From Haliotis rufescens (lineage: Eukaryota), in NCBI RefSeq assembly GCF_023055435.1, contig NW_025963890.1, positions 59,024,001 to 59,088,000 on the forward strand: DNA of 64,000 bases, read 5' to 3'. The position numbers and the translations under genes were made by a program. A model generated the notes under the pieces. That model worked only from the letters and a program-made list of their open reading frames with translations. It was not told where the DNA came from and made no database searches. Position 1 is the first letter of the stretch, and every line of letters starts with the position of its first letter. Of the stretch, positions 1-64,000 are shown piece after piece.

Positions 1-295
1 ATATAAATATGAATAGTCAATGTAAAAATATATGCTCTGTAAACTGATGAGCATTTAAATAAATATGCCAGGTCGAAGAGATATGACCAAAAGTGAAATG
101 ATTAAAGAATGTATGATACTAAAAAATGTAGATAACAATAACACGTGGTAACTATTTACCCCAAGATGTACGTACGGCATATAAAATCATAATTTTATAG
201 GCTCGTTTGAAATATAACTAATACAAGATTAAAAAGAAAAAAATGAAATAAACTACACTTATGTCAATTTTAAAATATCCATTTTTTCTCCACAG

Positions 296-3013
296 GTAGT
301 CAAGTTCGATAAGTTCCAGTTATGGCCAAACGGACATGCGCGGTACGTGTACAGCCCGGAACAGGAAGACGGCCGGCGTCATGTGAGCGGCTGGGCCATG
401 CGCAATACAAACAATCACAACTCACTTATTCTGAAGAAATCTTGCCTTGGCGTGCTTGTGTGTAACCTGGACTGTCTTCTAGAGAATGGCGAGAAGGTTC
501 ATCTCAGACCTGCTATTTGTGACAAAGCAAGAAGAAAACAAATGAGTGAGTAGTCTGAACGGCAATGTTAAAGAAGCAATTCTTTGAAGACACCGTCAAA
601 AGACATAATTGAAATCATTCTGAAAAAAGTTCCATAAAGCAATATAATAATGCAAGCCGAAGCTCAATGCGCCTTCTCGCTTGGAAGGTATGTCCCTGGG
701 ACAAAATTAGGGATATTGTACTCAGTTGATGTTTGTCTTACTTTGTTAAATCCTAATGGAGTAAAGTTTTAATCTCACATCCGTGTTTCTTCTTCAGACA
801 AACCCTGCCCGAATCCATCATGTTCTGGACGTCTGGAGTTGATGCCATGTCGGGGTCACTGTGGCTACCCGGTAACCCACTTCTGGCGACATCTCAATGG
901 GGCCATATATTTCCAGGCCAAAGGTTACCACGACCACCCCAGGCCGGAAGCCAAGTCAGTTGCAGAGAGTCGCCGCCATATAACCGGAAGTCGTCAGTGC
1001 AAGAGCGCAGGCGTAAGTATTATTGTGAGTGTGTGAGTGAGTGAGTGTGGTTTAACGTCGCTTTTAACAGTATTCCAGTAATATCGCGGCGTTAAGTATT
1101 ATGTAATGTATATTTCACATTAAAGATTAATAAAAGCACGGTATCAAATATTTATAGTTTGATTAAAATGTATTATTCCGATGTAAAGTTGCTTCACTAT
1201 TTGATGTGGATAATGCCATTGTAGTGTAGGGCAGGACGACAGCTAGTAACAGCGTTCAAAAACAATTTGATACCTCTGAATAATACATTTGAAACCTCAC
1301 GAATTCAATAAGAAAGTAAGATTTCAATGAATGTAACAGTATCAAATATACAATTACCTCTTAACTCCATTCATTGGACGCTAAGTAATAAATAGAAAAC
1401 AAAAACACAGATGTCCATATGAATCAATGAATTCATTTGTTTCACACACTCACTTTCTTCAGGTCCCGGATAATGTGTACACAGAACGTAAGCGTCACGC
1501 CAGTGAACCGTCCTTGGATATCGCCCAGAAGAAGTTCTTCTCCTCACAAACAGGTACGTCATACTATGTCAGCTCCTATCAGGTGATCAAGATATGTGCT
1601 CCATCTACTACGAGTCAAATATAGTTTCAAAATTAAGAGATTTGGCGGGGATGTTGAAACAAGACTTGGAATTATATCAACCTTTGTAATTGGGTACATT
1701 CTGCTATGCACAGTGATCGATGTTTCACCTTTGTTTTATATATATATTTTAATGCCAATCGTGTAGTCAAGAAGGTGTGTTTGCACATTGTGTTAAGGAT
1801 GTCTTAACGTGTAGAAATAAAATGTTTTTACTCTGTTACAGATGATGATGTTATGTGTTCCTGTCCGCCATTTGAGTGCACCTGCTCCAACTCCCGCTCA
1901 TATAAAGGTTTCCTGCCAACATGTGATATTTTCAAAGATCCTTACCAACCAAGTGCCTCCATTACGCAGATCAGCATCACTAATGCGCATGCGTCGACTC
2001 CTTCATTTGATCATCGGCTTCATGCTCCCGACTACAACCGGACACGAGCATCAACCTTCCATGGATCGTCTTCGTTTCTATACGACGAAGGAAAATTCCC
2101 ATCATACACCACAACTCAGCCATCTTTGTCTGTTTCCTGCTCGACAAACCAAGGGATAGGTCAGATCCCTAACTTCAGCTCTATGTTTGAACCAACCAGT
2201 CGTCAAAGAGATGACTCGTTATTCTTTAGGTCCGATCTATTCTCAAAGTCGTTTTATGACGCCCCAGAAATTGATCATAAGACGTCAGCTTTCATTCCAA
2301 CGCATTCCGACCCGTCAACTGGGTACACACGTTTTGATGATGTCACTAATATGGACGCTGCTAAAGGTAACAGTGGAGGTGTGAAGTCAGAGCCTGATCT
2401 GAGTGACCCTTTCAGCTTCTGTCCCAAGTCCCGCATTGGAAACATGTGCGAAGGACACATTGACAACTCGTTCTCAAAGTACACAGACAAGTTTCCAGAT
2501 ATTCCATCCATCCAATCCTCAGAAAGATATTTCTCTATCTATGGCGCCGAACAGACAAATCAAGACCGTGCTAGCAGTGCCTTCTTCTCCACGTGTAAGG
2601 CAAGTGACTCTCACGAAGCAACCGGTTCCTCGTCTCCTCCACGACGGCTTGAAGAATTGAAACCGGTTCAGCAAAAATCCCACCCAAACGAAGCCCCTAA
2701 AACGGCTTTTGATGTTCTTCAGAACAGTTTTGCCCATTCAAACAGCAAAGACACTGATATTCCTTGGATCCGGTTTCGTGAACCTCCCAGCTTTGCTTCT
2801 TCGTCAAGTTCCACACCAGGTTACGGGAACGGAAATTACAGGCAGTTACCTAAAACTGACACGCAAAATGCAAATATACATGGAAATGACGGAATCTCCA
2901 GACTTCCTCGTTACCACGGCGACTATCTTCAACACCAGAGTAACCAGTCGTATCAGAACATAAAGCAGCAACTATGTAATCATAGCATTAATATCACTCT
3001 AACCTATAACTAG
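296..3013 (+). CDS. gcm: Glial cells missing (GCM-domain) transcription factor, 5'-partial; coding exons 296-545, 798-1012, 1463-1553, 1842-3013
   Basis: Spliced translation gives the GCM domain: [58 protein letters not shown] / [44 protein letters not shown], with the Zn-binding Cys/His residues present. GT-AG introns have consistent phases (1,0,1). The last exon is Ser/Pro-rich and ends TAG at 3011-3013. The N-terminal WDIND exon is upstream of the window. Confidence 0.95.
1024..1092 (-). mobile_element. SINE 3'-tail fragment in a gcm intron
   Basis: (GAGT)n plus GGTTTAACGTCGCTTTTAACAGTATTCCAG, the reverse complement of the shared SINE tail. Flanked by direct repeat TAAGTATTAT (1014-1023, 1093-1102). 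Confidence 0.65.
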
Positions 3014-8027: not shown

Positions 8028-8173
8028 NNNNNNNNNNNNNNNNNNNNNNNNNNNNNNNNNNNNNNNNNNNNNNNNNNNNNNNNNNNNNNNNNNNNNNNNN
8101 NNNNNNNNNNNNNNNNNNNNNNNNNNNNNNNNNNNNNNNNNNNNNNNNNNNNNNNNNNNNNNNNNNNNNNNNN
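8028..8173. other. Assembly gap (146 N)
   Basis: Run of n characters. Confidence 1.
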
Positions 8174-10913: not shown

Positions 10914-11378
10914 CGTCCCTTTTCAGCAATTCAGTATCTACTTTATACATGATTTATCACATATTTGTATGACAAGTCGTGTTAATTTGCAAAAGGTTAC
11001 GATAACAGTAAGTGAAATATCAAAATATTGGAAAACAGACTCCGTATCCCTTATGGGCCACCGTACGATCAAGATCAAATATGTCTGAAGTTGAATGAAC
11101 CAACACATCATTGATTGATTTATTTTAACAAACTTGACAATATTCTGGTAGAAGTCGCTCACCTCTGGCTATACATTAAGGCCTTTTTACAGACTTTCAA
11201 AAAGTAAGGTCCACTCATTTCCAGAAATAATATTAGTGACACAAACTGACTTATTCAATAACAGACCAAAACGTTTACTGTCTTTTGGTGTTAAAGCATT
11301 TGACAAGTTATTGACCAGTGAGTCATGCAATGCTGGTTTTTGTATTTCACAGAGCTCTTTGCAATAATACCAGGCGTT

Positions 11379-12074
11379 CACACAAAACTACTCCAGACCC
11401 TAAACTTAGATGGTTTCAGCTTAGATTGCTCCATAGAATTCTACCTGTTAATACTTATCTACTCAAGATGCATATTGTTGACAACTGTCTATGCACTTTC
11501 TGTAATGCCGAGCCAGAATCTATCCAACATCTGTTTTGGGACTGTAGGGTAAGCAAAAATTTCTGGAAAAGATTTTCACAATGGATTGAATCCAAGTGTC
11601 CACATACTGGCAAGATAAATCTTACTTCAGACCTAATTCTTTTTGGCTTTTCAAAACATTTCCACACTGATGATATTTTTGATCTGATACTCTCATTGGC
11701 CAACTTTCACATTTATAGATGCAAAATGAAAAATAAACAACCAACCATTACACATTTCCAAAATGAGGTTAAATATTATTACCAACTAGAAAAATATAGA
11801 CACTTTAATAAAGCCAAACAGACTGAATTCTATACGAAATGGGCTCCTTATGAAAACCTTTTGAAAATATAAACACTTGCTATTCCAAAACTTTACTAAA
11901 TATATATCCTGCATTCTGTCTTCATAAGTACTAAAGCTTCTAGTGAGTGTGAATGTGTGTATGGATGTGTGCGAATGATATGTACTTTCTTAAAAAACCC
12001 TGGTCATGTATTTTGACTCTTATCCAAACATGATGTACTTTTACCAGGAACAATAAAAAAAAAAAATAAAAAAA
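11379..12074 (+). mobile_element. 5'-truncated L1/Tx1-type LINE: ORF2 C-terminus (zf-RVT), 3'UTR, poly-A
   Basis: ORF carries KLRWFQLRLLHRIL and the zinc knuckle CTFCNAEPESIQHLFWDC, stop at 11872. AATAAA and A-tail at 12052-12074. 16-bp TSD AATAATACCAGGCGTT at 11363-11378 and 12075-12090. Confidence 0.9.
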
Positions 12075-18648: not shown

Positions 18649-21445
18649 TCACCATTTGTTTGAGGAGATGGTGCAGCCTTGTTTAACAAGATGTCGAGCT
18701 CGCGTGCGTGTGTTCCGAAGACGTCTCCAGGCATAGTCGTAAGTGAGTAGTGCTGACTGGACATTTTTCTCGTGACTCTTGACAGTTTTGTATTCCGCCC
18801 TTCGCACGAAGACACTACAACCTTGAGACACAACTTTGTTCACCTGGGCTTTTACAATCCTGTGTCCAAGGAGGCGGGTTTCCCAGTTAGCATTGTCCGG
18901 AAGATGGCGGCAGAGTGTGTTCAAGACCACGAACCTTCGCCCATTGCGGCTCACCTGAACACCGATTTCATAGAGAGCTGGCTTGCTCTTCATAGAGTTG
19001 AAGATTTTCTTGGTTCTGAAGCCAGTTTTAACATCACCCCAGCGTTTCTCCCACCTGTCTGCGTCTGGTTTCGCTGGGAGCCTAGGGGAGATAACTTTGA
19101 TCCAGGGTGACCAGTCCATATCTTTCAGGGCGAAGTTGTCCTCTGGGATCTCCTCTCTATTCAGCAATGTTTTCTTGCTTGGTGTCTGTGTAGAAAAATG
19201 GATGGACAGATTCTTACAATAATAGCATCAACTTGCATGACCAACACCCAGCATGGTAACGCATTATGGTGTGATTTGGACGAGAGTGAGTGAGTGCGTA
19301 GAGTTTTACACCTCTGTTACCAGCATTCAACCATTTCATATGACATTTTGTACCCATGTGCCCATGTACCCTTAACTTGGCGTGGTGTGGCAAAGCGTTT
19401 AACCACGAGGATACCTTCCTACCCTGGTGTGAATCGACTAATAAGTAGCTATGTAATAACATGATGATTATTTTGTGTACAAAAAAGGGATTTCTGTGAA
19501 AACGTATTGACAACAATGTGTAAATATATCCTTTGATTTCTTCATGTCTTACCTTTATCTTTGTAGGCTTTGGTTTCCTGATGGGAGTAGGTTTTGATTT
19601 TCTGGTTGTGATTTTTCTTGCAGGTTTTGACAAGACTGGAACGGTATCGACTTTCTTGCCACGAGAGTTTGTCACCTTCTTCGACGTTGAAGTGACGGTT
19701 GTTCCATCGCGTAGGGCAGTAAACATTCCTTCCACGTCTTCACTCAGAGAACCGTCAGCACGGCGGGCTCGAACCTCTTTCTCATAGGCCTAAAGTAGTA
19801 GATAAATTTGTTTATGTCATTATGCATAATAAGCCTAGAAGCCCATGGAAATTGAACACATTTGTAAGCATATTTACCCTATACCCACATTTACCATGTA
19901 TACTGAAAGATCAAGCGTGATAACTCCGTAACTGTGCATTTCACAGATGTTCAGTCCTGAGTGGTCCTGAGTGGTCAGTTCAAATTAAATGAAACCATAT
20001 TGATGCAGGGAAGAGTACAATACGATCTGTTGTTCCTTGCTTCAAAATTGAAGTGTCTTACATGTATTCCTCGTGGTCATGTGTACCATGTTGAGTAACC
20101 TACTCGAAACTGAATGACGAGTTGTTTGTCCCGGAAAGATGTAATGGACATCACCAATTCAGGGCGGAAACATAACCCTGTGTTATAGATCGTAGCTTAT
20201 TCTCTAAATATGAAAGAATGAAAGTACAGGTTGTTTGAACCCTAGCTGTTGGTCAGCTGTTAGCTTACCTCCAACATATCTGCCCCCTGCTCCCTGTAGC
20301 AGATGGCCATGAGGAGATCAAACACGTTGGAGAAGTCTTTGAGTTGAAGATAGCGGCCTCCCGACTCCGCTGATATGGTTGTGTAGAATGGTATACCTCC
20401 ATATCCACACTCAACACCGTAAATCTTGACTCCCTGTGGAAAATACATATAAAAGGTCAACGCTAGAGTGAGTGAGTGAGTTGGGTTTAACGCCGCTTTT
20501 AACAGTATTCCAGTTATATCACGGCGTGTCAGCTTAATGTGGGAGGAAAGACCGCAGTGATGCAGGTCTCGGACGTTTACCACTTCGGTGAAACCCACGA
20601 GCACGGGTATGGTGCTGACAAACATAGAAATATAATCAGGTAGAACCGGGATTCGAACCCACAATCATAGGTTTCTGGCCTGCGTAAGGGACGCAACTCT
20701 GAATATCTGCAAATCGCGGCGCATTAGACGACTGAGCCACCCCTGCGCCCGTAAACGCCAGAGAACAATGAGAATCGATGATCTGCCGAAAAAGATTCCA
20801 TTTAGCTTAACGGGCATCATAATCGTGAAAATTACCTGAATGGATTAGTGAAAAACAGTGATGACACCAGGTGTTCGCCAAAGGAATGTAAGCTATTGCT
20901 GAGTACATATGAAGCGGTTTTTTCCACATGATGTTGTGGTGGAGAGAACAAATGATGTAGCTTTTAGATTATTAAAATCTGTAAGAAAGTCAACTCACCA
21001 TGTTGGTCAGTGTTTTTAGCTCTTTCCTCCAATCTATCATCAGTTTATTTCCACTGAAGCTTGGTGCGTGTGGTGAATCATCCCCAATAAGGACAATAGC
21101 CCGATTTGAACCCGGCGTCCATGACAGTTCCTCCCCAATTTGTCTGAGAACGAGTTCGTAACATTCGCCTCCGTCTCCTCCGCCCCCTGTGCTTCTGACG
21201 TTTTTAACGAATTTGCAGAGTTCATTGACGTCAGTGGAAAAGTCGACCCACTTGGTTGCTTCACTTCCATCACAGTAGTCACCGTGTGCGAAGACGGCGA
21301 TTCTGATGGCGGGGATGTCAGCCTGGAGCCGCTGTATCATGTCCTGGAGTCGACCTCGGACTTCGGCCAAACAGCTGCTCATGGAGCCGGTTGTGTCAAA
21401 GGAGAAGACAATCTCCGGAAGTCCACCAGGAGGAAGCAAAGCCAT
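18649..21445 (-). CDS. VWA + Lys-rich linker + ET/GIY-YIG-like protein, copy 1 (divergent), 461 aa; coding exons 21445-20999, 20433-20269, 19789-19553, 19185-18649
   Basis: All-phase-0 GT-AG introns join four open frames: MALLPPGGLPEIVFSFDTTGSM (MIDAS DxTxS), GDDSPH, K-rich exon, then DWSPW..PALYEIG..WETRLL..YDYAW. The same structure recurs in six paralogues. Non-coding exon 1 is at about 22050-22146. Confidence 0.88.
20469..20750 (-). mobile_element. SINE family B in an intron of copy 1
   Basis: Full-length reverse complement; imperfect TSD AACGC(T/C)AGAG. Confidence 0.9.
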
Positions 21446-21626
21446 GTTGAATCTGTTGAAATATTCAAAACAACTGAAGACTATGCATACGGGAAGTGTT
21501 ACTTTTGAAATTGATACAGTTTTATAACCATTAACTCAACTGATTGGTCAATACTTGTTGTCTGGGGACGAAACAGATACCGTTCACCTTCGTACCTTCG
21601 ATCTCAAAGCATCTGTCTTGTTATTT

Positions 21627-21917: not shown

Positions 21918-22142
21918 ATTAATCATAAGGACACATCCTAACAAGGTATGGTAACAGCACAATACATCTCGAATTGGTTTTATAAAATTTAAGTTTTCCT
22001 TGAAAATAAATTTTAATTATGTTGGTCGTAAGTTGTATATTAGTGTTACCTGTTTATAACCAGGCTGTTGTATTAAGTGATGTACTTGGGTAACTCTCTC
22101 TCAACCTGTCCTTGCACAGTACAGCTACGTCGATATCAGTAG

Positions 22143-22445
22143 ACTGATCCTAGTCGGCCACTCGGACAGCTTTTATACTGGCTGGGAGGCGACGATATCA
22201 CATGACGCGGATTTGTGTCGGTAGCAAGTTTAGACATGCCTTGTGACTGTTTTAGACCTGATCGATGATTTCGTAAACTAGATCAAAAACATGTTCCCAA
22301 ACTCAAACCGCTCACTCTCTCTCGAACACATCCTTTACTTCCATATTCCCTACACTGTCTGAACAACACTTGTTGGTTGTGTGTGATAGGAACTAGTAGT
22401 GTGCGGAGTTGGCAAATAGTTCATGACGTCACTGCTTCGCGGAAT
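22143..22445 (-). promoter_or_regulatory. Promoter of copy 1: Inr, TATAAAA (22171-22177), p53-type element (22222-22241), CRE+GAS-like composite (22424-22445)
   Basis: The motifs sit at equivalent positions in all paralogues, upstream of a conserved AG|GTAAC donor. Confidence 0.65.
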
Positions 22446-23227
22446 ATCTAGCAATAGCGCTTGGAGGTGGCTGATTACCCAATGCTCAATCAGCAGTTTT
22501 ACAGCCGACAGCGGTAATGTTGTTGGGTCGATGGCAATGTGGACACTCTGTGTATATTATTCCGAATTTTTGTATTATTGTATTATTCCAACTCAGTAGT
22601 GGATTTGGGTAAAATAGATCCTGCTACTAGCACACAATGACATGTCATTACTGAGATTAAATATTTCTGAATAGTCAGGTCGTCATGTTTTATTGCTTAC
22701 AAATTAATGTTAAGTGTATGGGTATCAGTGAGTTTACTACGAGTTTAATATGGTTTTTAATAGTTTAAGATTGATTGGATGATATTGTGAAAGTTTTATA
22801 TGTTTGTTAAATTGCAAAAAGCGATCAAGTTTTTTAAATATATAGTCTTTTTGTGACTTATGCTGAATATGACCAGACCACAGTTTGTATAAAGTTTGTG
22901 ACATTTGGTGTGAAACTGGGGTTGGTGTGTTAGCTTCCTGTACTCAGAAAAAGAGCTGGCTAAGCAAGCCAAACTTTGTGATTTTATTGCAGCTTCATGG
23001 CCAGACTGAGAACACGTATACACGTCATGGCTGATGAATGCCTCGTTATTCAAAAACATATAAACCGTTACTACAGAAATCTATGAAAATAGATATAAAA
23101 AAATTGGTTGTGTTTAACCTAATCACACCTGACCTTTCGTTCGAGTTAACAAGGACCAAGACATTATCCCCTTCAGGTCGGTCACTGTTATTTGCACCTC
23201 TCGCCAGGTCTACTTCACTGGAATAAA

Positions 23228-24551: not shown

Positions 24552-25240
24552 GTTCGTACTGCTTCTTGCTTCATACTGCATCAAACTTCGTACTGCTTCA
24601 TGCTTCGTTCTGCTTCATGCTCCGTTCTGCTTCATGCTCCGTACTGCTTCTTGCTTGGTACTGCTTTATGCTTCGTGCTGCCTGATGCTTCGTACAGTTT
24701 CGCGCTTCGTTCTGCTTCATGCTTCGTACATCCTCGTATTTCGTTCTGCTTCGTGCTTCGTGTTGCTCCATGCTTCGTACTGCTTCGTGCTTCTTGCTTT
24801 GTACTGCATCTTGCTTTGTACTGCTTCATGTTTCGTACTGCTTCTTGCTTCATACTGCTTAATGGTTCGCACTGCTTCATGCTTCGTAATTCTATGCGCT
24901 TCGTGTTGCTTCATACGTGATACTTCTTCGTGCGTCTCGCTGTTTTGTGCCTCATACTGCTTCATGCTTCTTGCTTCGTACTGCTTCATGCTCGTACTAC
25001 TTCGTGCTTCGTACTGCTTCATGCTTCTTGCTTCGTATTGCATCGAGCTTCGTACTGCCTCTTTGTTGGTTAAGCTTCATGCTTCGTGCTTATGCTTTAT
25101 CTTTCGTACTGCTTCGAGCTTCGTACTGTTTCATGCTTTGTACTGCTTCATGCTTCGTACTGCTTAATGATTCATACTGCTTCATGCTTCGTATTGTTTC
25201 GAGCTGCTGCGTTCTTCGTAATACTTCGTACTTCGTAGCT
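24552..25240. repeat. Degenerate ~17-bp minisatellite (CTTCGTACTGCTTCATG)n
   Basis: Directly visible; produces spurious ORFs in several frames. Confidence 0.9.
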
Positions 25241-28290: not shown

Positions 28291-30225
28291 CTATACTTTG
28301 TCTGATGAAATTGTGCTGCGTTGTTTGAACACATGTCGAGCAGTAGATCGTGAACTCCTCAGACGCCTCCAAGCGTAGTCATAGGACTTTATCATGGAGG
28401 CTGTTTTGACGTGGTATGATGCTCTTCTGTACACCACCCTCCGCACATAGACACTGCAGTCCTGAGACACAACGTTGTTCACCTGAGCTCTGACAAGTTT
28501 GTTTCCAAGAAGCCGTGTTTCCCAATTAACATTATTGGGAATATAGTGGCAGAACTTACTGAATACCACACACCTTCGTCCGTACCGGATGGACTGAACA
28601 CCGATCTCATAGAAAGCTGGCTTATTGTTCTCAGACTTGAAGATTGTCTTCTTTCTGAATCCAGGGTTGGCACCCCGTCTTTTCTCCCATTGTGCATCCT
28701 GTTTGAGTGGGACGTCAGGGGAGATAACTTTGACCCACGGTGACCAGTCCATGTTTCTCAAGCTGAAGTTGTTCTCAAAGACTTCCTCTCTTCTCAGAAG
28801 AGGTGTCACAAACTTTGTAGGTTTCTGGAATAATACATTATATATAATGAATCTATGAAGATATGGTCATACCTTTAAAGTTCCAAAAGGGTATACCTTT
28901 AATCGATAAATGCGATCGTTATCAGCAGTATGAGAAAGAAATGAACAACTGTGTATGTCATTATTACTTGGAAAGAAACGTATCTGAAATATACCTTCAG
29001 TGATTTAGTTCCTGGTCTCCTGGTGGATTTAGGTTTGGCCTTTCGAACTGCTGTGATTGATGTGGTTTTCTTTAAGGTGGGGATCTTCACATCTTTCTTA
29101 CTGCAACCGGTTGTGGTCTTCTTTGGCGATGAAAGTGAGGCTACTCCATCACGTAGTGAGGTAAACATTCCTTCCATGTCTTTGCTGAGGGCACCTTCAC
29201 CACAACGAGTTCGAACTTCTTTCTCGTACACCTGAAATGACATATACAAATGTCAAAACAGGAATACACGGAAAACATATTCGGTAAGGAAAGTAAACTA
29301 AATATATTATGAGAAAAGTATATATGTTTATAAACAATATAATCGAAGAGCAAACTTACATCAAACATATCTGCCCCGTTCTCCCTGTAGCAGATGGCCA
29401 TGAGGAAGTCGAAGACATTGGAAAAGCTGTCGAGTTGAAGATGGCGTCCCCCTGTCTCCTGTGACATTCTCTTGTAGAATTCCATGCTGCCACATCCGCG
29501 CTCTACCCCATATATCTTCACTCCCTGGAAACGAATGGGATGTTTCAATGTATTTGCTGTACATTTGACTTATGTTAGCATGATGCAATTCTGAATGAAC
29601 TCGATTTGTATTATCCCCAGCTGACAATCAAACTCAAAATGCAATTCGACATTGTATTGAGAATTTGAATGTCTTGAAAAATAGCATTTCTTAGTGATGT
29701 TAAGAATTGAATGTCTTGAAAAATAGCATTTCTTAGTGATGTTAAGAATTTAATTTGGCTAAAGTAAAATTAGCTCACCATTTTATTGAGAGTTTGAATC
29801 TCCTCCCTCCAGTCTATCTTGAGTTTGTTGTCGGGGTAGTCTGGTTCATGGGGGTTGGCGTCCCCGATCATGACGAGGGCACGATTGGATCCGGGTGTCC
29901 ATGACAACTCCTCCCCAACTTGTCTGAGAACGAGTTCGTAACATTCGTCCGAGTCTCCGCCTCCAGTGCTGCTGACGTTGTTTACAAAGTCACATAGTTC
30001 CTTAACGTCTGTGGAAAAGTCGATCCACTTTGTGATGTAGTTGTGTTTGTCACAATAGTCCCCGTGTGCGAAGACGGCAATTCTGATGGCGGGGATGTCA
30101 GCCTGGAGCCGCTGTATCATGTCCTGGAGTCGACCTCTGACTTCAACGAGACAGCTGCTCATGGAGCCGGTTGTGTCAAAGGAGAAGACATTCTCCGGAA
30201 GTCCACCAGGAGGAAGCAAAGCCAT
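28291..30225 (-). CDS. VWA-ET-like protein copy 2 (type A), 460 aa; coding exons 30225-29779, 29524-29360, 29231-28995, 28824-28291
   Basis: Open spliced frame with canonical splice sites; paralogous to copies 1 and 3-7. Confidence 0.88.
29665..29748. repeat. 42-bp tandem duplication private to an intron of copy 2
   Basis: TTGAATGTCTTGAAAAATAGCATTTCTTAGTGATGTTAAGAA x2; single in copies 4, 5 and 6. Confidence 0.85.
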
Positions 30226-30779: not shown

Positions 30780-31225
30780 ACTGATCTTACTCAGCAGCCA
30801 GCTCGCTTTTATACTGGCTGAGAGGCGATCAATGGGAGCTCGCTGAGACTTGTCGTGGTTGGCATGTTAAGACCTGTTCCGTGGTTGTGTTTAGAAGAGC
30901 AGGCGATGTTCATGTCTATGCGTTTCAATATATGCTTCTGTTTGTAAAGTAACAAAATCAACTGATTAATCATTTGAAGATACATGTAATCGGGGAATTA
31001 TTAAGCACCTTGGACTTTCGGAAATGTGCCCTCTTTGAAATGTCTCATATTCTGAATCGACACGTGAAACATACGTGCAGAAACAGATGAACATACTCTC
31101 TCAAACACATTATTTATATCAATGCTCCTTACACTGTCTGTCGGAAGATATTTTGGTTGGAGACGGTTTATAGCTGCAATGTACAGAGTTTGTATATTGT
31201 AGATGACGTCACTGCTTCGCGGAAT
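30780..31225 (-). promoter_or_regulatory. Promoter of copy 2: TATA 30807-30813, p53-type half-sites 30846-30879, CRE+GAS-like 31204-31225
   Basis: Motifs conserved across paralogues; exon-1 donor at 30668. Confidence 0.6.
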
Positions 31226-35236: not shown

Positions 35237-37122
35237 CTATACTTTGTCTGATGAAATTGTGCTACCTTGTTTGAACACATGTCGAGCAGTAGATCGTGAA
35301 CTCCTCAGACGTCTCCATGCGTAGTCATAGGACTTTATCATGGAGGCTGTTTTGGCATGGTATGATGCTCTTCTGTACACCACCCTCCGCATATAGACAC
35401 TGCAGTCCTGAGACACAACGTTGTTCACCTGAGCTCTGACAAGTTTGTTTCCAAGAAGCCGTGTTTCCCAATTAACATTATTGGGAATATAGTGGCAGAA
35501 CTTACTGAATACCACACACCTTCGTCCGTACCGGATGGACTGAACACCGATCTCATAGAGAGCTGGCTTATTGTTCTCAGACTTGAAGATTGTCTTCTTT
35601 CTGAATCCAGGGCTGGCACCCCGTCTTTTCTCCCATTGTGCATCCTGTTTGAGTGGAACGTCAGGGGAGATAACTTTGACCCACGGTGACCAGTCCATGT
35701 TTCTCAAGCTGAAGTTGTTCTCAAAGACTTCCTCTCTTCTCAGAACTGGTATCACAAACTTTGTTGATTTCTGGAATAATATAGTGTATTATGAGACTCC
35801 TTGACATGATCATAGCCTAACACAATGAAAACAAGAATTAAACACTGTGATCGCGCATTTAAAAACAATTGAGAGAATATTTTACCTTGAACGATTTCTT
35901 TCTTGGCTTTCTGATGGATTTAGGTTTGGGCTTTCTGACTCTTTGAATGGATGTTATTTTCTTTAAGGTGGGAACCTTCACATCTTTCTTAGCGGCACTG
36001 ATTGTAATCGTTGTCTTTGGTGGAGAAGGGGAGACAATTCCATCACGTAGGGATGTAAACATTCCTTCCATGTCTTTGCTGAGGGCACCATCAGCGCAAC
36101 GGGCTCGAACCTCTTTCTCGTACACCTGATAAGGGCAAATAATCATTGATGAAAGGAGTTTTATAACAACGAATATCACACAATTAAAATGACAGCCGCT
36201 CTACGGATTTTAAAGTGGTGCAGTTATTTCAACTTACATGAAGAATCTCTGCCCCCTGTTCCCTGTAGCAGATGGCCATAAGGAAGTCAAAGATGTTTGT
36301 AAAGTTTTCCAATTTAAGATGCCGACCTCCTGTCTTGTTGGAAATGGTTTCGTAGAACGTCGTATTGCCCGTGTCGCACTGAACTCCATAGATTTTCACT
36401 CCCTGAAATTAATATTAATATATAGAATAAGTGAATGAACATCGTTGTGTCGAATTTACGGTTGTTGTGGCGAAGCAAAAGCAAGGTCCCTGCACCTTTC
36501 TTATTCATTCATCATTTTCGTGTTAAAACCCGGATAACTTTACTCGGATACATTTACGTGAGTCCCTTCAATGTTGACTCAAAGGTGTTTGACTGGTGAG
36601 TGTCGTGTTCTTATTATTTGATTTATGTCTGAAAATGACCACAACCTGGAAATTAATAGAAATCCAACACACCATTTCATTCAGAGTTTGTGTCTCCTTT
36701 CTCCAGTCTATTTTTAGTTTATTGGCTTTGAAGTTTGGTTCGTGGGGCTTGTCGTCCCCGACGACGACGAGAACACGGTTAGATCCTGGTGTCCATGACA
36801 ACTCCTCCCTAACTTGTCGGAGAACAAGCTCGTAACACTCGCCGTAGTCGTAATCGCCTCCTGTATCTTCAACGTTCATGACGAAGTCGCAGAGCCCTTT
36901 GACGTCAGTGGAGAAGTCGATCCATTTTGTGACATATGTGGATTTGGTGCAGTAGTCACCGTGTGCGAAGACGGCGATTCTGACGGCGGGGATGTCAGCC
37001 TGGAGCCGCTGTATCATGTCCTGGAGTCGACCTCTGACTTCGGCGAGACAGTCGCACATGGAGCCAGTAGTGTCAAAGGAGAAAACAATCTCCGGAAGTC
37101 CACCAGGAGGAAGCAAAGCCAT
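35237..37122 (-). CDS. VWA-ET-like protein copy 3 (type B), 462 aa; coding exons 37122-36673, 36402-36238, 36125-35886, 35770-35237
   Basis: Open spliced frame; distinct VWA loops (MCDCL, YCTKSTY, DTGGDYDYGE). Confidence 0.88.
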
Positions 37123-37601: not shown

Positions 37602-38048
37602 ACTGATCTTACTCAGCGAGCCGGTCAGCTTTTATAGTGGCTGAGAGGCGATCAACGGTATCTCGCCGAGACTTGTCGTGGTTGGCATGTTTCGACTTGC
37701 TCCGTGGTTGTGTTTTGGACATCAGACGATGTTCATGTCTCTGTGTTTCTTGTTCGTATTTCAAGCTAAACTGCTGTTTGAAAACGCGAACTGACTCAAA
37801 TTATTAATGAGTTAAAGATAAAAGTGTTATCGGAGTTATTGACCATCTTTGATTGATGGCAAATTAGTCTAATTGATCAGGCGATATTCTGAACTGATAC
37901 ATGACACATGCGTTCAGAAACAGTTGAACTGTCTCGCTCAAATACAGTGTTTATGCCAAGCTCCTTACAGTGACTGCAGTTGCTATTTCGCCGTGCACAA
38001 TGCGTGGAGTTTGTAAAATGAGTGGATGACGTCACTGCTTCGCGGAAT
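37602..38048 (-). promoter_or_regulatory. Promoter of copy 3: TATA 37630-37636, p53-type half-sites 37669-37702, CRE+GAS-like 38027-38048
   Basis: Motifs conserved although the surrounding sequence has diverged. Confidence 0.6.
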
Positions 38049-43090: not shown

Positions 43091-44986
43091 CTATACTTTG
43101 TCTGATGAAATTGTGCTGCCTTGTTTGAACACATGTCGAGCAGTAGATCGTGATCTCCTCAGACGTCTCCATGCGTAGTCATAGGACTTTATCATGGAGG
43201 CTGTTTTGGCATGGTATAATGCTCTTCTATACACCACCCTCCGCACATAGACACTGCAGTCCTGAGACACAACGTTGTTCACCTGAGCTCTGACAATTTT
43301 GTTTCCAAGGAGCCGTGTTTCCCAGTTGACATTATCAGGAATGTTGTGGCAGAATTTACTGAATACCACACACCTTCGTCCGTACCGGATGGTCTGAACA
43401 CCGATCTCATAGAGAGCTGGCTTATTGTTCTCAGACTTGAAGATTGTCTTCTTTCTGAATCCAGGGTTGGCACCCCGTCTTTTCTCCCATTGTGCATCCT
43501 GTTTGAGTGGAACGTCAGGGGAGATAACTTTGACCCACGGTGACCAGTCCATGTTTCTCAAGCTGAAGTTGTTCTCAAAGACTTCCTCTCTTCTCAGAAG
43601 AGGTGTCACAAACTTTGTAGGTTTCTGGAATAATACATTATATATAATGAGTCTATTTAGATATGGTCATACCTTTAAGGTTCCAAAAGGGTATAGCTTT
43701 AATCGATAAATGCGATGGTTATCAGCAGTATGAGAAAGAAATGAACAACTGTGTATGTCATTATTACTTGGAAAGAAACGTATCTGAAATATACCTTCAG
43801 TGATTTAGTTCCTGGTCTCCTGATGGATTTAGGCTTGGCCTTTCGAACTGCTGTGATCGATGTAGTTTTCTTTAAGGTGGGGATCTTTACATCTTTCTTA
43901 CTGCAACCGGTTGTGGTCTTCTTTGGCGATGAAAGGGGGGCTACTCCATCACGAAGTGAGGTAAACATTCCTTCCATGTCTTTGCTGAGGGCACCTTCAC
44001 CACAACGAGTTCGAACTTCTTTCTCGTACACCTGAAATGACATATACAAATGTCAAAACAGGAATACACGGAAAACATATTCGGTAAGGAAAGTAAACTA
44101 AATATAACTTTATTATGAGAAAAGTATATGTTTATGAAGAATATAATCGAAGAGCAAACTTACATCAAACATATCTGCCCCGTGCTCCCTGTAGCAGATG
44201 GCCATGAGGAAGTCGAAGACATTGGAAAAGCTGTCGAGTTGAAGATGGCGTCCCCCTGTCTCCTGTGACATTCTCTTGTAGAATTCCATGCTGCCACATC
44301 CACGCTCTACCCCATATATCTTCACTCCCTGGAAACGAATGGGATGTTTCAATGTATTTACTGTACATTTGACTTATGTTAGCATGATGCAATCATGAGT
44401 GAACTCGATTTGTATCATCCCCCAGCTGACAATCAAACTCAAAATGCAATTCGACATTGTATTGATAATTTGAATGTCTTGAAAAAGAGCATTCTTAGTG
44501 ATGTTAAGAATTAATCTGGCTAAAGTAAAATTAGCTCACCATTTTATTGAGAGTTTGAATCTCCTCCCTCCAGTCTATCTTGAGTTTGTTGTCGGGGTAG
44601 TCTGGTTCATGGGGGTTGGCGTCCCCGATCATGACGAGGGCACGATTGGATCCGGGTGTCCATGACAACTCCTCCCCAACTTGTCTGAGAACGAGTTCGT
44701 AACATTCGTCCGAGTCTCCGCCTCCAGTGCTGCTGACGTTGTTTACAAAGTCACATAGTTCCTTAACGTCTGTGGAAAAGTCGATCCACTTTGTGATGTA
44801 GTTGTGTTTGTCACAATAGTCCCCGTGTGCGAAGACGGCAATTCTGATGGCGGGTATGTCAGCCTGGAGCCGCTGTATCATGTCCTGGAGTCGACCTCTG
44901 ACTTCGACGAGACAGCTGCTCATGGAGCCGGTTGTGTCAAAGGAGAAGACTATCTCCGGAAGACCACCAGGAGGAAGCAAAGCCAT
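43091..44986 (-). CDS. VWA-ET-like protein copy 4 (type A), 460 aa; coding exons 44986-44540, 44328-44164, 44031-43795, 43624-43091
   Basis: Open spliced frame with canonical splice sites. Confidence 0.88.
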
Positions 44987-45544: not shown

Positions 45545-45989
45545 ACTGTTCTTACTCAGCAGCCAGCTCGCTTTTATACTGGCTGAGAGGCGATCAATGG
45601 GAGCTCGCTGAGACTTGTCTTGGTTGGCATGTTTGGACCTGTTCCATGGTTGTGTTTAGACGAGCAGGCGATGTTCATGTCTATGCGTTTCAATACATGC
45701 TTCTGTTTGGAAAGAAACAAAATCAACTGATTAATCATTTGAAGATACGTGTAATCGGGGAATTATTAAGAACCTTGGACTTTGGGAAACGTGCTGTTTT
45801 TTAATGTCTCATATTCTGAATCGACACGTGAAACATACGTACAGAAACAGATGAACATACTCTCTCAAACACATTATTTATATCAATGCTCCTTACACTG
45901 TCTGTCGGAAGATATTTTGGTCGAAAACGGTACATAGCCGCAATGTACAGAGTTTGTATATTGTACATGACGTAACTGCTTCGCGGAAT
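45545..45989 (-). promoter_or_regulatory. Promoter of copy 4: TATA 45572-45578, p53-type half-sites 45611-45644, TGACGTAA+GAS-like 45968-45989
   Basis: Motifs conserved across paralogues. Confidence 0.6.
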
Positions 45990-49660: not shown

Positions 49661-51558
49661 CTATACTTTGTCTGATGAAATTGTGCTCCCTTGTTTGAAG
49701 ACATGTCGAGCAGTAGATCGTGATCTCCTCAGACGTCTCCATGCGTAGTCATAGGACTTTATCATGGAGGCTGTTTTGGCATGGTATGATGCTCTTCTGT
49801 ACACCACCCTCCGCACATAGACACTGCAGTCCTGAGACACAACGTTGTTCACCTGAGCTCTGACAAGTTTGTTTCCAAGGAGCCGTGTTTCCCAATTAAC
49901 ATTATCGGGAATATAGTGACAGAACTTACTGAATACTACACACCTTCGTCCGTACCGGATGGACTGAACACCGATCTCATAGAGAGCTGGCTTATTGTTC
50001 TCAGACTTGAAGATTGTCTTCTTTCTGAATCCAGGGTTGGCACCCCGTCTTTTCTCCCATCGTGCATCCTGTTTGAGTGGGACATCAGGGGAGATAACTT
50101 TGACCCACGGTGACCAGTCCATGTTTCTCAAGCTGAAGTTGTTCTCAAAGACTTCCTCTCTTCTCAGAAGAGGTGTCACAAACTTTGTAGGTTTCTGGAA
50201 TAATACATTATATATAATGAATCTATTTAGATATGGTCATACCTTTAAAGTTCCAAAAGGGTATAGCTTTAATCGATAAATGCGATCGTTATCAGCAGTA
50301 TGAGAAAGAAATGAACAACTGTATATGTCATTATTTTTTGGAAAGAAACATGTCTGAAATATACCTTCAGTGATTTAGTTCCTGGTCTCCTGATGGATTT
50401 AGGCTTGGCCTTTCGAACTGCTGTGATTGATGTGGTTTTCTTTAAGGTGGGGATCTTCACATCTTTCTTACTGCAACCTGCTGTGGTCTTCTTTGGCGAT
50501 GAAAGTGAGGCTACTCCATCACGTAGTGAGGTAAACATTCCTTCCATGTCTTTGCTGAGGGCACCTTCACCACAACGAGTTCGAACTTCTTTCTCGTACA
50601 CCTGAAATGACATATACAAATGTCAAAACAGGAATACACGGAAAACATATTCGGTAAGGAAAGTAAACTAAATATAACTTTATTATGAGAAAAGTTTATG
50701 TTTATGAACAATATAATCGAAGAGGAAACTTACATCAAACATATCTGCCCCGTGCTCCCTGTAGCAGATGGCCATGAGGAAGTCGAAGACATTGGAAAAG
50801 CTGTCGAGTTGAAGATGGCGTCCCCCTGTCTCCTGGGACATTCTCTTGTAGAATTCCATGCTGCCACATCCACGCTCTACCCCATATATCTTCACTCCCT
50901 GGAAACGAATGGGACGTTTCAATGTATTTACTGTACATTTGATTTATGTTAGCATGATGCAATCCTGAGTGAACTCGATTTGTATCATCCCCCAGCTGAC
51001 AATCAAACTCAAAATGCAATTCGATATTGTATTGAGAATTTGAATGTCTTGAAAAAGAGAATTTCTTAGTGATGTTAAGAATTTAATCTGGCTAAAGTAA
51101 AATTAGCTCACCATGTTATTGAGAGTTTGAATCTCCTCCCTCCAGTCTATCTTGAGTTTGTTGTCGGGGTAGTCTGGTTCATGGGGGTTGGCGTCCCCGA
51201 TCATGACGAGGGCACGATTGGATCCGGGTGTCCATGACAACTCCTCCCCAACTTGTCTGAGAACGAGTTCGTAACATTCGTCCGAGTCTCCGCCTCCAGT
51301 GCTGCTGACGTTGTTTACAAAGTCACATAGTTCCTTAACGTCTGTGGAAAAGTCGATCCACTTTGTGACGTATTTGTGTTTGTCACAATAGTCCCCGTGT
51401 GCGAAGACGGCAATTCTGATGGCGGGGATGTCAGCCTGGAGCCGCTGTATCATGTCCTGGAGTCGACCTCTGACTTCGACGAGACAGCTGCTCATGGAGC
51501 CAGTTGTGTCAAAGGAGAAGACTATCTCCGGAAGACCACCAGGAGGAAGCAAAGCCAT
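49661..51558 (-). CDS. VWA-ET-like protein copy 5 (type A), 460 aa; coding exons 51558-51112, 50898-50734, 50601-50365, 50194-49661
   Basis: Open spliced frame with canonical splice sites. Confidence 0.88.
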
Positions 51559-52114: not shown

Positions 52115-52559
52115 ACTGATCTTACTCAGCAGCACGCTCGCTTTTATACTGGCTGAGAGGCGATCAATGGGAGCTCGCTGAGACTTGTCTTGGTTGGCAT
52201 GTTTGGACCTGTTCCGTGGTTGTGTTTAGACGAGCAGGCGATGTTCATGTCTATGCGTTTCAATACATGCTTCTGTTTGGAAAGAAACAAAATCAACTGA
52301 TTAATCATTTGAAGATACATGTAATCGGGGAATTATTAAGAACCTTGGACTTTGGGAAACGTGCTGTTTTTTAATGTCTCATATTCTGAATCGACACGTG
52401 AAACATACGTACAGAAACAGATGAACATACTCTCTCAAACACATTATTTATATCAATGCTCCTTACACTGTCTGTCGGAAGATATTTTGGTCGAAAACGG
52501 TACATAGCCGGAATGTACAGAGTTTGTATATTGTACATGACGTAACTGCTTCGCGGAAT
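52115..52559 (-). promoter_or_regulatory. Promoter of copy 5: TATA 52142-52148, p53-type half-sites 52181-52214, TGACGTAA+GAS-like 52538-52559
   Basis: Motifs conserved across paralogues. Confidence 0.6.
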
Positions 52560-56233: not shown

Positions 56234-58129
56234 CTATACTTTGTCTGATGAAATTGTGCTACCTTGTTTGAACACATGTCGAGCAGTAGATCGTGATCTC
56301 CTCAGACGTCTCCATGCGTAGTCATAGGACTTTATCATGGAGGCTGTTTTGGCATGGTATGATGCTCTTCTGTACACCACCCTCCGCACATAGACACTGC
56401 AGTCCTGAGACACAACGTTGTTCACCTGAGCTCTGACAATTTTGTTTCCAAGAAGCCGTGTTTCCCAATTAACATTATCGGGAATATAGTGACAGAACTT
56501 GCTGAATACCACACACCTTCGTCCGTACCGGATGGACTGAACACCGATCTCATAGAGAGCTGGCTTATTGTTCTCAGACTTGAAGATTGTCCTCTTTCTG
56601 AATCCAGGGTTGGCACCCCGTCTTTTCTCCCATTGTGCATCCTGTTTGAGTGGAACGTCAGGGGAGATAACTTTGACCCACGGTGACCAGTCCATGTTTC
56701 TCAAGCTGAAGTTGTTCTCAAAGACTTCCTCTCTTCTCAGAAGAGGTGTCACAAACTTTGTAGGTTTCTGGAATAATACATTATATATAATGAGTCTATT
56801 TAGATATGGTCATACCTTTAAGGTTCCAAAAGGGTATAGCTTTAATCGATAAATGCGATCGTTATCAGCAGTATGAGAAAGAAATGAACAACTGTATATG
56901 TCATTATTGCTTGGAAAGAAACATGTCTGAAATATACCTTCAGTGATTTAGTTCCTGGTCTCTTGATGGATTTAGGTTTGGCCTTTCGAACAGCTGTGAT
57001 TGATGTAGTTTTCTTTAAGGTGGGGATCTTTACATCTTTCTTACTGCAACCTGCTATGGTCTTCTTTGGCGATGAAAGTGAGGCTACTCCATCACGAAGT
57101 GAGGTAAACATTCCTTCCATGTCTTCGCTGAGGGCACCTTCACCACAACGAGTTCGAACTTCTTTCTCGTACACCTGAAATGACATATACAAATGTCAAA
57201 ACAGGAATACACGGAAAACATATTCGGTAAGGAAAGTAAACTAAATATAACTTTATTATGAGAAAAGTATATGTTTATGAAGAATATAATCGAAGAGCAA
57301 ACTTACATCAAACATATCTGCCCCGTGCTCCCTGTAGCAGATGGCCATGAGGAAGTCGAAGACATTGGAAAAGCTGTCGAGTTGAAGATGGCGTCCCCCT
57401 GTCTCCTGTGACATTCTCTTGTAGAATTCCATGCTGCCACATCCGCGCTCTACCCCATATATCTTCACTCCCTGGAAACGAATGGGATGTTTCAATGTAT
57501 TTACTGTACATTTGACTTTTGTTAGTATGATGCAATTCTGAATGAACTCGATTTGTATTATCCCCAGCTGACAATCAAACTCAAAATGCAATTCGACATT
57601 GTATTGAGAATTTGAATGTCTTGAAAATAGCATTTCTTAGTGATGTTTAGAATTTAATTTGGCTAAAGTAAAATTAGCTCACCATTTTATTGAGAGTTTG
57701 AATCTCCTCCCTCCAGTCTATCTTGAGTTTGTTGTCGGGGTAGTCTGGTTCATGGGGGCTGGCGTCCCCGATCATGACGAGGGCACGATTGGATCCGGGT
57801 GTCCATGACAACTCCTCCCCAACTTGTCTGAGAACGAGTTCGTAACATTCGTCCGAGTCTCCGCCTCCAGTGCTGCTGACGTTGTTTACAAAGTCACATA
57901 GTTCCTTAACGTCTGTGGAAAAGTCGATCCACTTTGTGACGTAGTTGTGTTTGTCACAATAGTCCCCGTGTGCGAAGACGGCAATTCTGATGGCGGGGAT
58001 GTCAGCCTGGAGCCGCTGTATCATGTCCTGGAGTCGACCTCTGACTTCGACGAGACAGCTGCTCATGGAGCCGGTTGTGTCAAAGGAGAAGACTATCTCC
58101 GGAAGACCACCAGGAGGAAGCAAAGCCAT
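56234..58129 (-). CDS. VWA-ET-like protein copy 6 (type A), 460 aa; coding exons 58129-57683, 57471-57307, 57174-56938, 56767-56234
   Basis: Open spliced frame with canonical splice sites. Confidence 0.88.
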
Positions 58130-58664: not shown

Positions 58665-59090
58665 ACTGATCTTACTCAGCAGCCCGCCAGCTTTTATACT
58701 GGCTGAGAGGCGATCAATGGGAGCTCGCTGAGACTTGTCTTGGTTGGCTGAGACCTGTTCCGTGGTTGTGTTTAGACGAGCAGGCTATGTTCATGTCTAT
58801 GCGTTTCAATACATGCTTCTTTTTGGAAAGAAACAAAATCAACTGATTAATCAGTTGAAGATACATGTAATCGGGGAATTATTAAGCACCTTGGACTTTG
58901 GGAAACGCGCTTTCTTTGAATGTCTCATATTCTGAATCGACACGTGAAACATACGTACAGAAACAGATGAACATACTCTCTCAAACACATTATTTATATC
59001 AATGCTCCTTACACTGTCTGTCGGAAGACGGTATATAGCCGCAATGTACAGAGTTTGTATATTGTAAATGACGTCACTGCTTCGCGGAAT
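58665..59090 (-). promoter_or_regulatory. Promoter of copy 6: TATA 58692-58698, altered p53-type element 58731-58760, CRE+GAS-like 59069-59090
   Basis: Motifs conserved, except that the middle p53 half-site is lost. Confidence 0.55.
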
Positions 59091-62160: not shown

Positions 62161-64000
62161 CTATACTTTGTCTGATGAAATTGTGCTGCCTTGTTTGAAC
62201 ACATGTCGAGCAGTTGATCGTGATCTCCTCAGACGCCTCCATGCGTAGTCATAGGACTTTATCATGGAGGCTGTTTTGACGTGGTTTAATGCTCTTCTAT
62301 GCACCACCCTCCGCACATAGACACTGCAGTCCTGAGACACAACGTTGTTCACCTGAGCTCTGACAATTTTGTTTCCAAGAAGCCGTGTTTCCCAATTAAC
62401 ATTATCGGGAATATAGTGACAGAATTTACTGAATACCACACACCTTCGTGCGTACCGGATGGACTGAACACCGATCTCATAGAGAGCTGGCTTATTGTTC
62501 TCAGACTTGAAGATTGTCTTCTTTCTGAATCCAGGGTTGGCACCCCGTCTTTTTTCCCATTGTGCATCCTGTTTGAGTGGAACGTCAGGGGAGACAACTT
62601 TGACCCACGGTGACCAGTCCATGTTTCTCAAGCTGAAGTTGTTCTCAAAAACTTCCTCTCTTCTCAGAAGAGGTGTCACAAACTTTGTTGATTTCTGGAA
62701 TAATATAATGTATCATGAGACTCCTTGACATGATCATAGCCTAACACAATGAAATCAAGAATTAAACACTGTGATCGCGCATTTAAAAACAATTGAGAGA
62801 ATATTTTACCTTGAACGATTTCTTTCTTGGCTTTCTGATGGATTTAGGTTTGGCCTTTCTGACTCTTTGGATGGATGTTATTTTCGTCAAGGTGGGAACC
62901 TTCACATCTTTCTTAGCGGCACTGATTGTAATCGCTGTCTTTGGTTGAGAAGGGGAGACAATTCCATCACGTAGGGATGTAAACATTCCTTCCATGTCTT
63001 TGCTGAGGGCACCATCAGCGCAACGGGCTCTAACCTCTTTCTCGTACACCTGATGAGGGCAAATAATCATTGATGAAAGGAGTTTTATTATGACGAATAT
63101 CATAGAATTAAAATGACAGCCGCTCTTCGGATGTTAAAGTGGTGCAGTTATTTCAACTTACATGAAGAATCTCTGCCCCCTGTTCCCTGTAGCAGATGGC
63201 CATAAGGAAGTCAAAGATGTTTGTAAAGTTTTCCAATTTAAGATGCCGACCTCCTGTTTTGTTGGAAATGGTTTCGTAGAACGTCGTATTGTTCGTGTCG
63301 CACTGAACTCCATAGATTTTTACTCCCTGAAATCAAAATCAATAAATGGAATAAGTGAATTAACATCGTTGTGTCGAATTTACGATAGTTGTCGCGAAGT
63401 AAAAAAAGGTCCCTGCACCTTTCTTATTCATTCATCATTTTCGGTTTAGTTGAAGCCCGAATAACTTTACTCGGATACATTTACGTGAGTCCCTTCAACG
63501 TCGACTCAAAGGTGTTTGACTGGTGAGTGTCGTGTTCTTATTATTTGACTTATGTCTGAAAATGACCACAACCTGGAAATTAATAGAAATCCAACACACC
63601 ATTTCATTCAGAGTTTGTGTCTCCGTTTGCCAGTCTATTTTTAGTTTATTGGCTTTGAAGTTTGGTTCGTGGGGCTTGTCGTCCCCGACGACGACGAGAA
63701 CACGGTTAGATCCTGGTGTCCATGACAACTCCTCCCTCACTTGTCGGAGAACAAGCTCGTAACACTCGCCGTAGTCGTAATCGCCTCCTGTATCTTCAAC
63801 GTTCATGACGAAGTCGCAGAGCCCTTTGACGTCAGTGGAGAAGTCGATCCATTTTGTGACATATGTGGATTTGGTGCAGTAGTCACCGTGTGCGAAGACG
63901 GCGATTCTGACGGCGGGGATGTCAGCCTGGAGCCGCTGTATCATGTCCTGGAGTCGACCTCTGACTTCGGCGAGACAGTCGCACATGGAGCCAGTAGTGT
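62161..64000 (-). CDS. VWA-ET-like protein copy 7 (type B), 5'-partial at the window edge; coding exons >64000-63600, 63326-63162, 63049-62810, 62694-62161
   Basis: Near-identical to copy 3; the frame is open to the window end. Confidence 0.85.

Follow-up and report, generated by a model that had tools for sequence, protein, structure and literature searches.

The locus raises the question whether a 20-mer that resembles a p53 response element, placed just above the TATA box of a tandem gene family of Haliotis rufescens, is a selected regulatory site or a chance likeness. The whole stretch of 64,000 nucleotides analysed is referred to here as the window. The preliminary description had reported an unspaced 19/20 match to p53 half-sites some 45 bp above the TATA box of the first gene copy, and this was confirmed: the 20-mer reads TAGCAAGTTT-AGACATGCCT, matches two RRRCWWGYYY half-sites in 19 of 20 positions with a spacer of 0 and ends 44 bp above the TATA box TATAAAAG on the gene strand. 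It is the sole match with at most one mismatch in the 64-kb window, where 0.07 were expected; such a match was present in 7 of 100 whole-window shuffles, and an equally good site arose in 3 of 20,000 trials in which the 100-bp segment preceding the copy-1 TATA box was shuffled by dinucleotides. The unlikely feature of the site is its position. A further perfect half-site of copy 1 (AAACATGTTC), with a weaker partner 2 bp away, lies about 45 bp beyond the main element and is not retained in the other promoter types.

The connection of this site with a gene was examined by comparing four sequencing runs, whose type (RNA or DNA) was guessed, over positions 21930-22720. In one of the four (X19, guessed RNA) a contig covers 22149-22050 and then runs into the first bases of exon 2. 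Exon 1 therefore starts at ATCAGT, which we take to be an initiator, 28-32 bp below the copy-1 TATA box, the precise start lying beyond the resolution of the contig. By the same splice the TATA box belongs to the copy-1 gene via a 100-base non-coding exon, and the site lies in the regulatory region of a transcribed gene, as judged from the spliced contig of a run guessed to be RNA. A contig of X15 (guessed RNA) crosses the promoter unspliced at a depth of 3 and may be DNA. The site is variant-free in the two DNA-type runs that cover it, a result which is uninformative because, with 22 substitution places in 791 bp, about 0.6 variants were expected and zero would be expected about half the time.

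From 18.6 kb to its end, the window is a tandem array of seven minus-strand genes (Table 1), with a spacing of about 6.6 kb in the regular part. Six copies are complete; their introns are all bounded by GT and AG, and their open frames, 460-462 codons long, encode a vWA domain, a basic linker and a GIY-YIG-like domain. Residue for residue, the copy-1 protein agrees with the RefSeq entry for LOC124141879 of H. rufescens; it shares 96% identity with the protein of H. cracherodii and 64-66% with the other copies. As the copy-1 type is common to H. rubra (orthologue at 83% identity), the paralogue split is old. Copies 2, 4, 5 and 6 are mutually 96.5-98% identical at the protein level; there are therefore three independent promoter types (copy 1; copy 3; copies 2/4/5/6), not five. 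The N-terminal part of copies 3 and 7 is of a separate type, but their last exon resembles that of copies 2/4/5/6 at 93-94%, a pattern suggestive of gene conversion or of an exchange of exons between array members. Elsewhere, the window contains a partial gene for the transcription factor glial cells missing (GCM), a non-LTR retrotransposon fragment, a run of N and a degenerate tandem repeat (Table 1). Short repeats of several families are scattered from 1 to 26 kb and also occur in the copy-1 introns. A transposon origin of the p53-type site was considered and is unlikely, as self-comparison of the window shows the site only in the gene copies and not in the dispersed repeats.

Table 1. Features of the window (positions counted from its first nucleotide)
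Feature	Position	Strand	Remarks
GCM transcription factor gene, part	233-3010	+	PF03615 in two exons
Run of N	8028-8173		146 bases
Non-LTR retrotransposon fragment	11315-11869	+	zf-RVT match
Copy 1 exon 5	18649-19185	-	basic GIY-YIG-like (PF19239) domain without catalytic Glu and Asn
Copy 1 exon 4	19553-19789	-	helices and disordered Lys/Arg-rich linker, pI about 12
Copy 1 exon 3	20269-20433	-	end of vWA domain
Copy 1 exon 2	20999-21452	-	ATG at 21445; vWA domain with MIDAS-type DxTxS motif
Copy 1 exon 1	22050-22149	-	non-coding; ATCAGT initiator at start; GT donor at 22049; spliced contig, run X19
Copy 1 TATA box TATAAAAG	22170-22177	-	kept in all six promoters
Copy 1 p53-family-type element	22222-22241	.	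grade 5; unspaced pair of half-sites with one mismatch at an outer position
Copy 1 further half-site and partner	22275-22296		AAACATGTTC
Most conserved promoter block ATTCCGCGAAGCAGTGACGTCAT	22423-22445	-	19/20 across three types
Same block in the array	22423-22445, 31203-31225, 38026-38048, 45967-45989, 52537-52559, 59068-59090	-	
Degenerate short-period tandem repeat	24553-25237		between copies 1 and 2
Copy 2 gene	28291-30225		TATA 30806-30813
Copy 2 half-sites	30836-30879	.	four half-sites; grade 3 for the distal and grade 2 for the proximal pair
Copy 3 gene	35237-37122		TATA 37629-37636
Copy 3 half-sites	37669-37702	.	element 37683-37702 grade 5 and third half-site 4 bp off
Copy 4 gene	43091-44986		TATA 45571-45578
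Copy 4 half-sites	45601-45644	.	four half-sites in two pairs, of grades 4 and 2, separated by 4 bp
Copy 5 gene	49661-51558		TATA 52141-52148
Copy 5 half-sites	52171-52214	.	cluster as in copy 4
Copy 6 gene, intact	56234-58129		TATA 58691-58698
Copy 6 half-sites	58721-58760	.	distal pair broken by 4-bp deletion; grade 2 proximal pair left
Copy 7	62161-64000	-	extends past window end; promoter outside window

The strings that had been described for copies 2-5 were all verified at their positions. Unspaced matches to the consensus amount to 19/20 in copy 1, 18/20 in copy 3, 18/20 in copies 4 and 5 and 17/20 in copy 2. Half-site pairs with intact C and G cores and a spacer of 0-13 are present in copies 1-5, copy 6 having a weak proximal pair only; copies 2-6 also carry a third and a degenerate fourth half-site closer to the TATA box. 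Retention of the element across paralogues, as first proposed, accordingly holds for copies 1-5, but the sixth promoter (TATA at 58698), which had been left out, has lost its main site: a 4-bp deletion (58745-58760), which may be fixed, polymorphic or an artefact of assembly, cuts through the CATG half-site, and the open frame of the copy is intact. Sites were graded with our own re-implementation of the p53retriever rules (PMC4470028, supplement 1), which were made for human p53, and copies 1-6 obtained grades 5, 3, 5, 4, 4 and 2. Grade 3 or higher is reached at five places in the 64 kb, each in a different one of the six array promoters and 44-46 bp above the TATA box.

Chance was estimated against the window, shuffles and Markov simulations. 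Among 15,000 simulated 100-bp windows, grade 5 occurred in none, grade 4 in 7 and grade 3 in 42. Equally good sites arose in 20,000 shuffles of the 100-bp promoter 3 times for copy 1, 15 times for copy 3, 30 times for copy 4 and for the proximal pair of copy 6, and 83 times for copy 2; these counts refer to a p53 motif chosen post hoc from many possible motifs, and the copies are not separate trials because their ancestry is shared.

More telling is the pattern of change between the promoter types. Changes that preserve the consensus make up 5 of 6 between copies 1 and 3 (p 0.02), 6 of 7 between copies 1 and 4 (p 0.009) and 5 of 7 between copies 1 and 2 (p 0.05), where a fraction of 0.35 is expected from the promoter's own substitution spectrum and the three comparisons share history. 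When 6 or 7 random changes were placed on the copy-1 site, an equally good site was left in 2.6% or 1.2% of trials, respectively. Variation within the site falls on the R, W and Y positions, whereas C and G stay fixed and recur every 10 bp. The C..G cores had been said to persist, and indeed the four C/G core bases are constant in copies 1-5, although copies 2, 4 and 5 have CCTG in one half. The proposed signature of selection finds some support in this motif-preserving bias (p 0.009-0.05) but not in raw conservation, which is moderate: 13 of 20 bases are common to the three types, 77 of 462 comparison windows equal that, and the best-conserved block lies elsewhere.

An independent comparison was sought in homologues from other animals. 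The best 80 of 458 relatives in a metagenome scan, mostly bacterial, included three full-length animal homologues (L001, L002 and L003), which group with heterodont clams in a quick tree; the family shares 39-48% identity with metagenome homologues over about 220-260 residues. L001 has an intron before the ATG and its promoter lies outside the contig, so that promoters are visible for L002 and L003 only, and these two are homologous to each other. The coding regions of both (L002:2511-3896 and L003:252-1637) are intronless, against four coding exons in abalone, and their TATA boxes lie about 120 bp above the ATG. L003 carries GCGCATGCCC, 4 bp, AAACAAGTTC and then a quarter site, the CATG half, the CAAG half and the quarter site stopping 43, 29 and 19 bp short of TATATAA. 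The order is the same in abalone copy 4, where a CATG half is followed after 4 bp by a CAAG half and then by a degenerate half, at distances of 46, 32 and 22 bp from the TATA box. As good an arrangement as that of L003 was obtained in 1 of 20,000 shuffles with a spacer of at most 4 and in 3 of 20,000 with a spacer of at most 13; the Markov model gave about 4e-4 to 1e-3 for a 100-bp window, and 0.3% by grade. In L002, 3 bp separate two CATG halves, which together have three mismatches; a site as good arose in 144 of 20,000 shuffles, and two of the three base changes within half-sites between L002 and L003 break the consensus. Under the rules for human p53, L003 reaches grade 3 and L002 stays below grade 2, so that one of the two related promoters passes; the clam sites are weak. 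In overall alignment, 5 of 6 pairs of clam and abalone promoters are at chance level, and only L003 against copy 4 beat 300 shuffles, under loose scoring. The CATG half of the clams contains TGCGCA, present in both promoters, which could be half of an NRF1-type site.

Published work bears on how such sites should be read. Spacers of more than 2 bp strongly reduce transactivation by human p53 and TAp63/TAp73 (PMC4470028, PMC4039150). The DNA-binding domain of an annelid member of the p53 family recognises the human consensus in EMSA (PMC8901663), and the consensus is therefore a fair guide for molluscs; a direct test of it with a molluscan p53-family protein was not found in the literature consulted. 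Taken together, the top grades in two promoter types, the motif-preserving substitutions and the similar clam arrangement favour a selected p53-family element.

The protein encoded by the family was analysed for what such an element might control. The vWA domain spans residues 8-200 and thus begins at the N-terminus, leaving no room for a signal peptide; its fold matches the vWA domain of TFIIH p44 with Z 19.2 and an rmsd of 2.3 Å over 177 residues, and its MIDAS-type ligands D17, T19, S21, T86 and D122 are invariant in all 25 full-length members. A disordered linker with a pI of about 12 follows, and then a basic domain of 173 residues (pI 10.4), which matches PF19239 with 31.1 bits (cut-off 21.4) over profile positions 107-161 of 163 only; 17 of 36 family members match this profile at E 0.1 or better. 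The full model shows the strand-strand-helix-helix-strand-helix order expected for GIY-YIG with pLDDT of about 77-95, though modelled alone the domain gave a pLDDT of 37 and was unusable. Fold searches were filled by vWA matches: no GIY-YIG chain was listed by Foldseek or VIA-align, nor by a profile search of PDB sequences, and among Atlas look-alikes one cluster with GIY-YIG in 12% of its members is a lead only. Of the residues that we take to be catalytic in GIY-YIG nucleases (Tyr, Tyr, Arg, Glu and Asn, the Glu presumably binding metal), the first Tyr is present in 21, Arg in 16 and the second Tyr, which is missing in the abalone rows, in 11 of the 25 full-length members. Glu and Asn each occur in only 1 of 25, the domain thus lacking the make-up of an active GIY-YIG nuclease, and it is therefore probably not a nuclease. 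The molluscan product is most likely nuclease-dead, and more likely a nucleic-acid-binding adaptor than a DNA-cutting effector. The first reading of the family as a GIY-YIG-derived effector of DNA damage or apoptosis is thus upheld in its PF19239 similarity but weakened by the loss of Glu and Asn, and no link to apoptosis was found. Among distant members with the C-terminal domain, P0256, P0224 and P0247 keep Glu, and P0256 retains Asn as well, so that some lineage may still possess an active form of the nuclease.

The family occurs throughout molluscs, is also represented in brachiopod, nemertean and annelid records, and has undergone tandem expansion in abalone, oyster, Mya and Mytilus. The fusion of vWA with the GIY-YIG-like domain was found only in lophotrochozoan records among the named matches; a viral scan with alignment of the C-terminal domain yielded no relative among 119 pattern matches, and PADLOC and NCBIfam gave nothing above cut-off. 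A bacterial vWA relative of 354 residues, whose C-terminal domain has no Pfam match, stands just upstream of, and co-directional with, a gene for NAD-dependent DNA ligase in 15 of 47 loci (L010, L011, L014, L020-L022, L026, L028, L030-L032, L040, L043, L051 and L072). These 15 loci belong to one clade; the adjacency is accordingly read as inherited gene order and gives no grounds for assigning a repair role.

The most conserved non-coding element of the array is a 23-bp block farther upstream, retained in all six promoters including that of copy 6, 246-402 bp above the TATA box. It consists of TTCCGCGAA, presumably a STAT site of GAS type or an E2F-like site, followed after 4 bp by what we take to be a full CRE, TGACGTCA, of which copies 4 and 5 have the variant TTACGTCA. 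The block was not found in the 450 bp above the L002 TATA box, where p53-type half-sites occur; the view in L003 is limited to 130 bp. The main texts of the literature held nothing relevant on STAT, GAS or CRE in molluscs.

A near-perfect motif near the start, recurring in four of five sister copies and in weaker form in a clam, makes the family a likely direct p53/p63 target, and in our estimate the 20-mer is probably a real p53-family element working with the bZIP/STAT module. It also seems fairly probable that stress induces the nucleic-acid-binding vWA adaptor through a p53/p63 tetramer on the 20-mer, which acts jointly with the bZIP and STAT/E2F-type module. According to this mechanism, the molluscan tetramer would bind the unspaced 20-mer beside the core promoter and, once bound, would switch the gene on under stress, activation rather than repression and a genotoxic trigger being presumed, while the upstream CRE and STAT/E2F-like module would cooperate with the p53-type site. 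In the product, the MIDAS-bearing vWA domain is predicted to bind a partner protein, and the basic linker and GIY-YIG-like domain to bind nucleic acid, so that the protein would act inside the cell as an adaptor devoid of nuclease activity. The copies differ in site strength, as their grades express, and this may tune or remove the response, and copy 6 would have largely lost its p53 input.

The element might also be real but read by a p63-like isoform (e.g. deltaN) for constitutive epithelial, larval or germline expression and not for DNA damage. Lophotrochozoans have a single p63/p73-like gene (PMC8901663), and deltaNp63 is somewhat more tolerant of mismatches and short spacers (PMC4039150), which fits the spaced CAAG-rich clusters of copies 2-6 and the clam. 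Several guessed-RNA runs, their conditions not on record, contain 0.24-0.37 of the gene's words, and one run has the spliced transcript. Copies 1 and 3, however, carry unspaced CATG-containing sites, the kind preferred by p53 and TA isoforms (PMC4039150), and we consider constitutive use by such an isoform improbable.

We hold it just as improbable that these genes serve immunity or stress under the main control of the STAT/E2F-like and CRE block, the p53-like string being inherited and non-functional or minor. The block, at 19/20 across three types and kept even in copy 6, would suit this reading, as would the tandem expansion in four molluscan groups, which is typical of immune families; moreover, a mussel contig named R811-like, a candidate family member, fell about 40-fold after injection injury (PMC6401078). 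Such control leaves the motif-preserving bias and the clam arrangement unexplained, and L002 is without the block above its TATA box yet has p53-type half-sites. That another factor, of what we take to be NRF1 or forkhead type, binds part of the string and the p53 likeness is incidental is very doubtful, for although both clam promoters share TGCGCATG and AAACA cores recur, the abalone sites are without the GCGC half and their variation falls on the R, W and Y positions around fixed C and G.

Snails and clams separated roughly 500 million years ago, and it is a tentative suggestion, on balance doubtful, that p53-family control of the vWA/dead-GIY-YIG family predates this split, with a half-site cluster, in the order CATG half, 4 bp, CAAG half and degenerate half, held about 30 bp above the TATA box ever since. 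Were it true, the family would rank among the most ancient direct targets of p53 to have been conserved, and would form an effector branch of the p53 response in lophotrochozoans that has escaped recognition, tandem-amplified and re-tuned copy by copy. The element itself is of a canonical kind, and the candidate target gene family appears to be new. Molluscan p53 has been studied in bivalve transmissible leukaemia and in pollution stress; a mapped direct p53 target element in a mollusc was not found in titles and abstract openings of the literature, nor the vWA and GIY-YIG domain pair of molluscs in the main texts. Six gene ids of the family are likewise absent from main texts, and supplementary RNA-seq tables may list them. 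An uncharacterised mollusc-wide protein family may be a p53 output. The grade-5 site by the TATA box, with natural weak or deleted variants in near-identical neighbouring copies, offers a system for testing what molluscan p53/p63 binds and activates, and might serve to mark p53 activity in abalone and clams.

Among known systems, the protein is close to the R811-like intracellular vWA domains, which have bacterial, viral and fungal relatives and whose name was transferred from mimivirus R811 to scallop members. The invariant DTTGS MIDAS-type motif and the AHGDYC and ECYE motifs are alike, and the mollusc family differs in that a RING/ariadne domain was not found and a GIY-YIG-like partner domain stands instead. 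The C-terminal domain, by its PF19239 match above cut-off, resembles the plant EFFECTOR OF TRANSCRIPTION proteins (ET1/ET2), from which the mollusc protein differs in having no ET zinc repeats, a vWA domain fused in front and neither Glu nor Asn. ET2 is reported (PMC6585611) to be induced by ionising radiation, to be required for the removal of UV lesions and to nick DNA, which makes a DNA-damage context for the mollusc family plausible by analogy only.

An invertebrate counterpart of the element is the CEP-1 site of C. elegans ced-13. Its flanks are likewise rich in A/T (AAACATG), and its halves are separated by a spacer with which the native protein functions, but that spacer measures 28 nt, the nematode protein is of diverged specificity and the target is a BH3-only gene (PMC4323202). 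From vertebrate p53 targets the abalone case, seen at the level of sequence only, departs in its unrelated target gene, its 4-bp-spaced extra half-sites and the weaker, spaced form in the clam. It nevertheless shares with the vertebrate elements of p21, PUMA, MDM2 P2 and MMP2, as presented in PMC4323202, the unspaced RRRCWWGYYY halves, the CATG core and the place near the start; the PUMA site in Table 3 of that paper has more mismatches than the copy-1 site, and the two adjacent elements of copies 2, 4 and 5 recall MDM2 P2.
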